This document shows, piece by piece, positions 18,511 to 20,550 of a stretch of 57,367 nt of DNA. Every line of letters starts with the position of its first letter. The stretch's first letter is position 1. The notes under the pieces were generated by a model, which did not search any database, was not told where the DNA came from, and was given only the letters and a program-made list of their open reading frames with translations. Source of the DNA: an archaeon (GTDB lineage Archaea; Asgardarchaeota; Thorarchaeia; Thorarchaeales; Thorarchaeaceae); contig JAJRWI010000048.1 in the NCBI GenBank assembly GCA_024276825.1, positions 1-57,367 on the forward strand, read 5' to 3'. The translations under genes were made by a program, and so were the position numbers.

Positions 18511-18978
18511 TCAATATCTTCTTGACCGATCTCGTCGATCGTTTCTTCCGTATCTTCCCCTTCTATCAGAAGAGAATCGCCTTGGCCTTCTGTACTCGTG
18601 ATACTCATCCGACATGTTGTTTTCCATGTTGACCTCTTCTATCGGAGTTTCTGAACCCGAAACTTCGCCATAGCGTCCAATATTCAGTCGTAAATAGCCC
18701 TTAAACAGCGTTGTATATCCATTCTTCAGGACATAGGTTTGGCCAACCTGCATCTCATCAATTGATTGGTCCCAAAGAGGCATTACAACCACGCCCGTGG
18801 AATCGCCAACGACTGCATCTGCAATCCGATGCTCCTCACCATCTGCCCGAGACTTCACATCACGTGGCTCTCCAATTTCCACTAGTTTGAAGGTTACGGT
18901 GAGATTCTTCATTCTTGGCCTAAGTTGCTCCACAGTAGCTTCAATCGGTTCTGTAGATGGATAACTCATTTTGCTCAC
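18511..18978 (-). CDS. ssb: Single-stranded DNA-binding protein, crenarchaeal-type single OB fold with Arg-rich tail
   Basis: DAVVGDSTG...LW, LKNGYTTLFKG.LRLNIGRYG; Arg/Asp/Gly-rich C-terminal tail. Confidence 0.85.
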   Translation of the reverse strand: MSKMSYPSTEPIEATVEQLRPRMKNLTVTFKLVEIGEPRDVKSRADGEEHRIADAVVGDSTGVVVMPLWDQSIDEMQVGQTYVLKNGYTTLFKGYLRLNIGRYGEVSGSETPIEEVNMENNMSDEYHEYRRPRRFSSDRRGRYGRNDRRDRSRRY

Positions 18979-19130
18979 TTCGATAGCTACAAGCTCTCAA
19001 AAGGAGATTATCATCATCGGTCTGCCCATTTGTTGAGTGACTGGTGAAGAAATGATCTTCTTCTTGAGCTTGCATATTTCATTATGTATAGTAACTATAA
19101 AACCATAACTAATACAATAACATGAAAAAT

Positions 19131-19368
19131 TAGGTGGATGCAGAGGGGAATAAAAACTTGCCCTATGGGCTTCGAGGTTCCACCCTCAATTTTGATGAAC
19201 ATGAGTGGTGCTCCAATCCGCTTGCAACCATGGTCTCTCTCTGAACCGCTATGGTGAGAGCGAAATTTCCCTGCAGACGGATATTTCACACCATGGCACA
19301 AAGGACACGCGGAATCCCGGACTTTTGGACTGCGTAAGGAGCCTTATTACCACCTCTGCATCCGACTA
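19131..19368 (-). ncRNA. Candidate structured non-coding RNA of about 235 nt, family not recognised
   Basis: Perfect 11-bp terminal stem (19136-19146 with 19353-19363) extended by G-U pairs on the - strand; several internal helices; TTTATG about 20-25 nt upstream; T5 downstream; GC-richer than AT-rich flanks. Confidence 0.65.
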
Positions 19369-19482
19369 TTATATGACCTGAACCAACATAAACTTTCCTT
19401 ATTTTCCCAACTATTCTACAGGTATAGAATAGTATATAAAGCCTGATGAGCAGATGGTCTTGATACCAATTGGGGTGATCCT

Positions 19483-20550
19483 GTGGAAAAGATCAGAGTT
19501 GCGCTCTTTGGCGTTGGAAACTGTGCAAGTGCACTGGTCCAGGGCATAGAGCATTATCGAGATGCACAAGCCAGTAAAGAGATCATCGGACTGAGCCATC
19601 CTGATTTTGCTGGCTACCATGTCAGTGATATTGAGTTTGTCGCAGCCTTTGATGTGACCACAAGCAAGGTTGGGCTGGACCTCTCAGAAGCCATTTTTGC
19701 AGAACCCAATAATGTTATGCGTTTTGCAAAGGTCCCCACACTCAATGTGAAAGTGCTTAAAGCCCCCATACTTGATGGTGTTGATGACAATCTGCGAGCA
19801 TTAGTTTCAATATCTGAAGATAAGGAAGTTGATGTTACCAGAGCCCTAAAAGACTCGGGAGCAGAGATTGGAGTCTGTTTGATTCCGGGCTCATCTCAAA
19901 AGGCCACCGAATTCTTTGCAAATGCTTGTCTAGAAGCTGGCGTGTCCTTCATCAACGGAACTCCTATCACAATCGCTTCGGACCCAGAATGGCAGAAGAA
20001 GTTTGAAGAACGAAGCCTTGTGCTCGTCGGCGATGACATTCAGGACCAATTGGGCTCAACAGTTCTTCATCGAAGTATTCTGCAATTGCTTGTGGCACGC
20101 GGCGTGAAAGTCGATAAGAGCTATCAACTCGATGTCGGCGGCGGTGCTGAGTCACTTGATTCACATTATAGAGGTAGGATGAGAAAGCGTGGTGTAAAGA
20201 CTTCTGCTATCAGTCAGGATCTTCCATATGAAGCACCCCTCGTTGCAGGATCCTCTGACTATGTTCCATTCTTGGACAATGGGCGTGAGTCTTTCTTCTA
20301 TATTCATGGTCGACAGTTTGGCGGTGCTCCAGTGACCATTGATATTCGAATGGAAGTGACTGATGGTCCAAATGCAGGACCGATTCTCATGGATGCCATA
20401 AGGGGCACAAAACTTGCAATTAAGAGGGGAATAATTGGTGCCCTTGAGTCAATCTCAGCATATGGCTTCAAGAAGCCTCCTGTTCCCACAACAATGTATC
20501 GTGCTGAGAGAATGGTAGAAGAGTTCTTGCTTAACAAGAGGGAACGTTAG
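19483..20550 (+). CDS. ino1: myo-inositol-1(3)-phosphate synthase
   Basis: GVGNCASALVQG, DIEFVAAFDV...KVGLDLSEAIF, LVGDDI..QLG.T.LHR, SDYVPFL, DGPN. Confidence 0.92.
   Translation: MEKIRVALFGVGNCASALVQGIEHYRDAQASKEIIGLSHPDFAGYHVSDIEFVAAFDVTTSKVGLDLSEAIFAEPNNVMRFAKVPTLNVKVLKAPILDGVDDNLRALVSISEDKEVDVTRALKDSGAEIGVCLIPGSSQKATEFFANACLEAGVSFINGTPITIASDPEWQKKFEERSLVLVGDDIQDQLGSTVLHRSILQLLVARGVKVDKSYQLDVGGGAESLDSHYRGRMRKRGVKTSAISQDLPYEAPLVAGSSDYVPFLDNGRESFFYIHGRQFGGAPVTIDIRMEVTDGPNAGPILMDAIRGTKLAIKRGIIGALESISAYGFKKPPVPTTMYRAERMVEEFLLNKRER

Follow-up and report, generated by a model that had tools for sequence, protein, structure and literature searches.

A new family of structured RNA encoded head-to-head with ino1 in Thorarchaeota

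Introduction

Among known organisms, the nearest relatives of eukaryotes are the Asgard archaea. In a 57,367-nt stretch of thorarchaeal DNA (hereafter the window), the spacer between ssb and ino1 raises a simple question: does it encode an RNA and, if so, of what kind? A first-pass annotation, made by reading the sequence alone, had proposed that this spacer specifies an independently transcribed, large structured RNA, and it had named three things to look for: a strong match to a known Rfam family, dispersed copies of the kind expected of a MITE, and conservation with covariation among relatives. Here, we describe a computational analysis of the locus and of its homologues.

Results

The ssb–ino1 spacer contains a stand-alone gene for a structured RNA

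The features of the locus are collected in Table 1. The RNA is a GC-rich island (GC 0.51) between flanks with a GC content of 0.33–0.36, in agreement with the AT-rich flanks noted previously. On the given strand, the two arms of its terminal stem read GGATGCAGAGG (19136–19146) and CCTCTGCATCC (19353–19363) and pair with each other. When folded, a 251-nt stretch of the minus strand reaches −90.6 kcal/mol (z = −4.4), a value that none of 200 dinucleotide shuffles equalled, while the fold of the plus strand is weaker (z = −3.7). The minus strand is fixed as the sense strand by the alignment of homologues, in which G-U cells outnumber A-C cells 242 to 98, and it is also indicated by the conservation of a promoter and a terminator described below. 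This upholds the strand assignment of the first-pass annotation.

Table 1. Features of the RNA gene and its surroundings in the window
Feature	Position	Strand	Sequence or description
Structured RNA gene	19132–19363	−	~230 nt; 5' G at 19363; tail ACCU after end of terminal stem at 19136
P1, 5' strand	19353–19363	−	GGAUGCAGAGG; 8/11 pairs change on both sides, 87% paired (helix 1)
P1, 3' strand	19136–19146	−	CCUCUGCAUCC; pairs with 19353–19363
P1b, 5' strand	19343–19349	−	UAAUAAG; pairs with 19149–19156 via G-U; 5/5 pairs change on both sides (helix 2)
P1b, 3' strand	19149–19156	−	UUUUUAUU; from minimum-energy fold and helix 2
P2, 5' strand	19338–19342	−	GCUCC; 92% paired, nearly invariant, one-sided changes only (helix 3)
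P2, 3' strand	19210–19214	−	GGAGC; pairs with GCUCC 19338–19342
P3 variable hairpin	19307–19335	−	8/8 pairs change on both sides (helix 4)
P4, 5' strand	19290–19306	−	Pairs with 19216–19234; 12/12 pairs change on both sides (helix 6)
P4, 3' strand	19216–19234	−	Partner of 19290–19306
P5 hairpin	19262–19287	−	89% paired; 6 basal pairs change on both sides (helix 7); stem nearly invariant
P6 hairpin	19237–19261	−	CUCUCACC-loop-GGU[UCA]GAGAG; 95% paired, almost no variation (helices 8–9)
P7 region	19180–19204	−	Conserved CAYGUUCA, then A-rich loop; overlaps P9
Conserved block	19174–19185	−	GGGUGG(A)ACCUC; near-invariant in most lineages
P8 hairpin	19160–19170	−	GCCC-AUA-GGGC; hairpin in nearly all homologues
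P9	19177–19181 with 19153–19157	−	GGAAC with GUUUU; covaries between lineages; closes P8
Putative promoter	19387–19400	−	TATA-like TTTATG 19387–19392; purine-rich BRE-like AAGGAAAG 19393–19400 just upstream
T5 run	19125–19129	−	3 nt after tail; likely archaeal terminator
ssb	18978–18511	−	Ssb-like OB-fold protein; same strand, 158 nt downstream of RNA
ino1	19483–20550	+	Myo-inositol-1-phosphate synthase; head-to-head with RNA

The ends of the RNA are recognizable in its homologues, with an invariant GGACG at the 5' end (GGAUG in the window) and CGUCC at the 3' end followed by a short tail, mostly ACC. The window RNA matches the full-length covariance model described below over all model positions (1–239), with 137.6 bits. 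Two open reading frames of the window, of 68 and 58 codons, overlap the RNA. Since they give only short, frame-broken matches in the homologues of the RNA, the gene is noncoding. Together, these sequence comparisons confirm positions 19132–19363 of the minus strand as a predicted stand-alone gene for a structured RNA of ~230 nt, whose transcript, ends and abundance are inferred from sequence signals only.

Compensatory changes support a conserved secondary structure

We aligned 47 homologues end to end (alignment A5) with a full-length covariance model, R2, of 239 positions and 65 pairs. Standard pairs occupy 80.1% of the cells, as against 37–46% when partners are slid by one to three columns, a comparison that favours the tested structure somewhat since R2 takes its structure from the minimum-energy fold of one member. 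Among the same 47 homologues, both sides change in 45 of the 65 base pairs. The covariation score is 0.316, compared with 0.154 in shuffles, none of which (0/500) reaches the observed value, and 0.065–0.096 for slid partners. An alignment-free control gave the same picture, the strands of P4 and of inner P1 from each lineage binding their own partners best, with −17.1 kcal/mol for cognate versus −11.5 kcal/mol for noncognate strands in P4 and −16.3 versus −9.6 kcal/mol in inner P1, the sequences of which are unrelated between lineages. Compensatory changes so far above the controls show that the secondary structure is conserved. Covariation among relatives, which the first-pass annotation had wanted to see, is thus found.

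The predicted structure can be summarized as follows. The 5' and 3' ends are held together by a long terminal stem, P1/P1b, beyond which lies a junction with two parts, one in which P2 encloses P3 and P4 and the other consisting of a conserved 3' domain. P4 forms a stalk, at the tip of which stand two adjacent hairpins of nearly invariant sequence, P5 and P6. In the 3' domain, the CAYGUUCA loop and the GGGUGGACCUC block are accompanied by P8, which P9 closes. Purifying selection is evident at two levels, maintaining base pairing in P1, P3, P4 and P9 and the sequence itself in P5, P6 and the conserved 3'-domain blocks.

All helices listed by the first-pass annotation were found where it had placed them, including the P3 stem (ACGC 19307–10 with GCGT 19332–35), the pairing of ACCATGG (19227–34) with 19290–97 in P4, CTCTC/GAGAG at 19235–60 and the hairpins at 19160–70 and 19174–87, and nearly all of them proved right. 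Its suggestion that G-U pairs extend the terminal stem on the minus strand is borne out by P1b, every pair of which changes on both sides. The exception is a crossing helix, ATCCG+TGCA (19216–26 with 19272–82), which had been taken to imply a pseudoknot or a conformational switch. Only 49% of its cells pair, all 500 shuffles do as well, and it is further disfavoured because it competes with the conserved P5 and would disrupt it. Neither a pseudoknot nor a switch is supported.

Conservation of the P3 loop does not extend beyond certain genera, the remaining ones having a wholly different sequence there. When the loop (19313–19330) was compared across loci (L014, L023, L034, L047 and L064), the motif AAGUCGUGGGA or AAGUCCGGGA was seen to be conserved in several genera, and another clade carries UCAGGGUGG in its place. 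It is this motif that had suggested CR-I of RNase P RNA.

A covarying stalk carries two nearly invariant hairpins

The P4 duplexes are 12–16 bp long and unrelated in sequence across lineages. In the stems of P5 and P6 at its end, the sequence itself is conserved and not just the pairing, and the loops of P3, P5 and P6 are free to vary. P5 contains a conserved purine-purine mismatch; most members have G-G at this point, the window and a few others A-A. P6 has an invariant 3-nt bulge, UCA. The palindromic CUGCAG in the P5 loop of the window was considered as a site of kissing-loop dimerization and rejected, the loop sequence not being conserved. One homologue (L073:1426–1649, in genome G003) keeps P5 and the 3' domain, P6 being replaced by unrelated sequence.

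The 3' domain combines conserved blocks with a covarying P9

P9 takes quite different forms across lineages, among them GGUGUGUU/AACAUACC, GGUGCGUC/GGCGUGCC, ACGAGUC/GAUUCGU and UGGAC/GUCCA, and none of 5000 permutations of partners does as well. The P8 hairpin that it closes also differs in sequence (GCCC/GGGC, AGCCA/UGGCU, GUCCA/UGGAC), and 57% of its cells pair in A5, in which this hairpin is poorly aligned. For P7, a candidate register (UCAY/GUGG plus UUC/GAG) is 92.6% paired, its covariation is not significant, and it overlaps P9, which does covary.

A further complementarity links the internal GGUGGA(A)C (19174–19185) to the 3'-terminal GAUCCACC/GUCCACC (19132–19142) in 88% of cells; no compensatory change was found between GGUGGAC and GUCCACC, and a U-A pair is broken in 18 of the 47 sequences. 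An alternative conformer based on this pairing is accordingly not claimed. The same internal block resembles the ribosome-binding site of ino1, GGGGUGAUCC (19471–19480).

The RNA belongs to no known family

Scanning the whole window with Rfam 15 at the gathering threshold gave no match on the RNA. Neither did a search at E ≤ 10 of positions 18950–19520 and of eight divergent homologues, so that the strong match to a known family whose absence the first-pass annotation had made a point of novelty was not found in either search. The matches to snR79, ST7-OT3 and HCV_J7880 lie outside the RNA and look like chance. The first of these (18950–19021, minus strand, 17 bits, E = 3.3) overlaps the start of ssb and has a C/D-box snoRNA-like appearance, with an AUGAUGA box, but is probably fortuitous. 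ARAGORN found no tRNA or tmRNA in the window, as expected from the lack of a tRNA fold noted at first reading. Visual inspection of the conserved blocks for K-turn, C/D-box and H/ACA motifs gave no fit.

Could the RNA nevertheless be a very divergent member of a familiar class, such as RNase P/MRP, SRP, Y, vault, tRNA-like or tmRNA-like RNA? Its paired ends are like those of RNase P, SRP, Y and vault RNAs, and the string AAAGUCCGGG resembles CR-I of RNase P RNA, to which the first-pass annotation had drawn attention. However, the genome of the window (2.9 Mb, 98.3% complete) carries its own RNase P RNA (RF00373, 169 bits, contig C24) and SRP RNA (RF01857, 120 bits, contig C36), which share only words of 7–8 nt with the ssb–ino1 RNA, and an identity as either is therefore rejected. 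The CR-I likeness does not hold up, since the string sits in the variable loop of the P3 hairpin and is absent from many lineages. With no Rfam match, no tRNA-type prediction and no TROVE gene (see below), this explanation is already largely refuted and we consider it very improbable.

Comparison with individual classes is instructive all the same. Like archaeal RNase P RNA, the new RNA has a terminal stem of the P1 kind and the CR-I-like string, and its size approaches that of the minimal type T form, but it lacks a match to RF00373, a CR-V partner and the P4 pseudoknot. With archaeal SRP RNA, it has in common paired ends, a long helix leading to a three-way junction with two side-by-side hairpins, and a housekeeping-style single-copy gene with its own promoter; the P4 stalk with its two capping hairpins presumably recalls the SRP S domain. 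In contrast, SRP RNA is longer (~310 nt versus 230 nt) and has conserved GNAR and GGAA tetraloops where the hairpin loops of the window RNA vary, and the latter has no RF01857 match and no helix-8 motif, the absence of which had been pointed out before. Y RNAs and bacterial YrlA also have a long 5'/3' stem with a small bulge and conserved internal modules, but the window RNA is twice their size, matches none of them in Rfam and contains no detectable tRNA-like module. Moreover, a search for the gene of their partner, TROVE/Ro60 (PF05731), came back negative for the 98.3%-complete genome and positive for control genomes. The major vault protein (PF01505) had no match in the genome, although the control genomes likewise gave none.

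There is also a likeness to orphan large or mid-size structured RNAs found by comparative genomics. OLE, ROOL, GOLLD, raiA and Hgc RNAs are likewise stand-alone, have multi-helix structures backed by covariation and invariant junction or bulge nucleotides, and were of unknown function when discovered. Hgc RNAs were seen as GC-rich islands in AT-rich archaeal genomes, just as the window RNA is GC-rich within an AT-rich spacer. Unlike these RNAs, the window RNA is restricted to one Asgard family, and their Rfam models do not match it; unlike those that reside in mobile elements or phages, it is single-copy and has a fixed chromosomal position. A full-text literature search turned up no description of the ssb–ino1 RNA, nor of Asgard noncoding RNAs beyond rRNA. 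Given that Rfam 15 gives no match and the literature searched no description, the ssb–ino1 RNA is a new RNA family. The newness lies in the family and is not claimed for its function.

The RNA is a single-copy, syntenic gene of one Asgard family

We ran a covariance model of the core, R1, over 151 Asgard genomes. The RNA was found in 23 of the 26 genomes of the window's family, whose contigs are labelled Thorarchaeota, almost always in one copy and once in the window's own genome, whereas the 125 Asgard genomes from 26 other families yielded no credible R1 match. Two weak R1 matches in other Asgard families (E = 0.001 and 0.007) fall in unrelated sequence that has no promoter and were discarded. 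A DNA search of related genomes returned partial matches in five genera of the family. When the most conserved block was used as an exact pattern against 185,579 species genomes, 39 contigs matched; 34 are archaeal, the labels reading Thorarchaeota (29), Promethearchaeota or Hermodarchaeota (4) and uncultured archaeon (3), and the five bacterial matches are attributable to chance. A scan of metagenomes added 19 true copies, the single match on a viral contig being false.

Three genomes of the family gave no match. In one, which is 81% complete, the ino1 locus is absent altogether, and the other two belong to genus g11. After a third g11 genome had been added, an exhaustive scan of the ino1 loci of all three (L080–L082) with the full model found no RNA, the ino1 locus being intact. 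In L081, the only one of these loci with mapped open reading frames, ~125 bp separate the upstream gene from ino1. The ino1 locus of the sister family is also without the RNA. By these comparisons, the absence in g11 is a loss, a natural deletion. Since g11 has lost the RNA with the locus kept, and since L073 has no P6, the RNA is not strictly essential, and the same two cases show that its function is dispensable in some backgrounds.

At every locus with flanking sequence, the RNA lies head-to-head with ino1, and gene order in the entire block is conserved across the family. The position on the other side is less constant, ssb following the RNA only in some genomes and a convergent gene for an Fe-S/CCG-domain oxidoreductase taking its place elsewhere. 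This bears on whether the RNA might be a 5' leader or cis-regulatory element of ssb, as its location on the same strand, 158 nt upstream of that gene, would allow. Because ssb is missing from many loci, where the RNA faces the 3' end of a convergent gene instead, the RNA is not an ssb leader or riboswitch; moreover, in the window, the two are separated by the T5 run and by an AT-rich spacer with a TATA-like sequence. We regard a leader function as highly unlikely.

The RNA is free of repeats and target-site duplications. It occurs as a single copy whose syntenic position never varies and is therefore not a MITE, the possibility that dispersed copies would have raised. Still less likely than the ssb leader is a nonfunctional origin, whether as the remains of a mobile element, a gene for a small protein or a GC-rich spacer with a fortuitous fold. 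The overlapping open reading frames and the tendency of GC-rich islands in AT-rich DNA to fold well might suggest one of these, but they are already refuted by covariation, with compensatory changes above the controls, and also by single-copy synteny, by reading frames that are not conserved and by a promoter in all homologues.

The RNA and ino1 are predicted to have separate promoters in a shared spacer

In the window, the TATA-like box and the purine stretch lie ~27–30 nt upstream of the 5' G at 19363. All 45 distinct upstream sequences of the homologues contain a YTTAW motif with its first base at −31 to −29 and, ahead of it, a run rich in A (−36 to −33). From its spacing, this arrangement is the geometry expected of a putative archaeal TATA/BRE promoter. 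The region downstream of the homologues is pyrimidine-rich and T-rich, with TTTT or TTNTT in 28 of 45. The upstream TTTATG with BRE-like purines and the downstream T5 run, which had been read as transcription signals at the outset, are therefore present in the window and conserved among relatives. The proposal of an independently transcribed, large structured RNA likewise gains support from covariation, from a conserved promoter of its own and from its single copy.

The TATA box of the RNA and that of ino1 (TATATAAA, 19433–40) are ~45 bp apart. Between them, directly upstream of the latter, lies an inverted repeat (19410–19433, with arms 19410–18 and 19425–33). Among 46 homologous loci, 23 have a complete repeat of this type, ATTCTAT-N4-6-ATAGAAT, and many of the rest have a CATAGAATAGT half-site. 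The repeat looks like a candidate transcription-factor operator in a shared divergent promoter region.

This arrangement might mean that the RNA is a locus-bound regulator of ino1, with the RNA or its divergent transcription tuning the expression of inositol-phosphate synthase. The constant head-to-head orientation, the proximity of the TATA boxes and the conserved repeat between them all speak for such a link. On the other hand, gene order is kept throughout the block in this family, so that the position next to ino1 is barely informative about function; a 230-nt molecule with 65 conserved pairs and invariant hairpins would be superfluous for transcriptional interference; and ino1 persists in genus g11, which has no copy of the RNA. 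We consider regulation of ino1 unlikely.

Elsewhere in the same genome, the RNase P RNA gene (locus L001, on contig C24 of genome G000) has a CTTAATG box at about −30 that resembles the CTTATG box of the RNA. This suggests that there may be a common promoter flavour for stable RNA genes in the host organism.

The RNA probably acts in trans within a ribonucleoprotein

What, then, might the RNA do? The best explanation, to which we assign a probability of roughly 60%, is that it is an independently transcribed, single-copy RNA specific to one family of Thorarchaeota that serves as a trans-acting scaffold of a lineage-specific ribonucleoprotein. Acting in trans, the RNA would bind or act through the surfaces of the P5-P6 head, with its purine-purine mismatch and UCA bulge, and of the unpaired conserved blocks in the 3' domain, leaving P1, P3 and P4 no role but to space the structure and protect the ends. 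A long-lived RNA of a ribonucleoprotein fits because the terminal stem sequesters both ends, a trait shared with SRP, RNase P, Y and vault RNAs. Furthermore, since the stems of the head are invariant and its loops free to vary, recognition of a groove, bulge or junction by protein, or tertiary packing, is indicated rather than antisense targeting through the loops. The neighbouring genes offered no clue to a partner protein.

A more specific version, that the RNA is the subunit of a new ribonucleoprotein or represents a new class of ribozyme, that it arose within Thorarchaeota, and that the P5-P6 head together with GGGUGGACCUC/CAYGUUCA forms its functional centre, is held more tentatively, at slightly below even odds. 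Taken by itself, a catalytic or ligand-sensing role, as a new ribozyme or a trans-acting aptamer with the P5-P6 head and junction nucleotides as active site or pocket, seems about as improbable as regulation of ino1. Invariant nucleotides in stems, bulges and junctions amid freely covarying helices are typical of ribozymes and aptamers alike, and the multi-helix junction architecture would suit either. Yet no ribozyme or riboswitch model of Rfam 15 matches, neither a cleavage-site signature nor an expression platform is visible, and there is no downstream gene to regulate where ssb is absent.

An important implication of the scaffold reading, and of its more specific version, concerns the repertoire of Asgard RNAs. 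That nearly all genomes of a family should keep a single-copy, promoter-driven RNA with 65 conserved pairs would imply a dedicated machine, or a catalytic RNA, that has not been described. Were it indeed a ribonucleoprotein subunit or a ribozyme, it would be the first lineage-specific structured RNA of housekeeping style described for Asgard archaea, beside the RNase P and SRP RNAs. Now that the sequence family has been assembled and modelled, both by covariance and structurally, the RNA is open to synthesis, probing, cryo-EM and use as bait, and the loss in g11 and the variant without P6 provide built-in comparisons in which partner proteins might be sought by phylogenetic profiling.

A minor feature of the RNA concerns its G-rich GUGG words and CCAC words, for which there are five recurrences within the molecule; these may reflect tertiary or alternative pairings.
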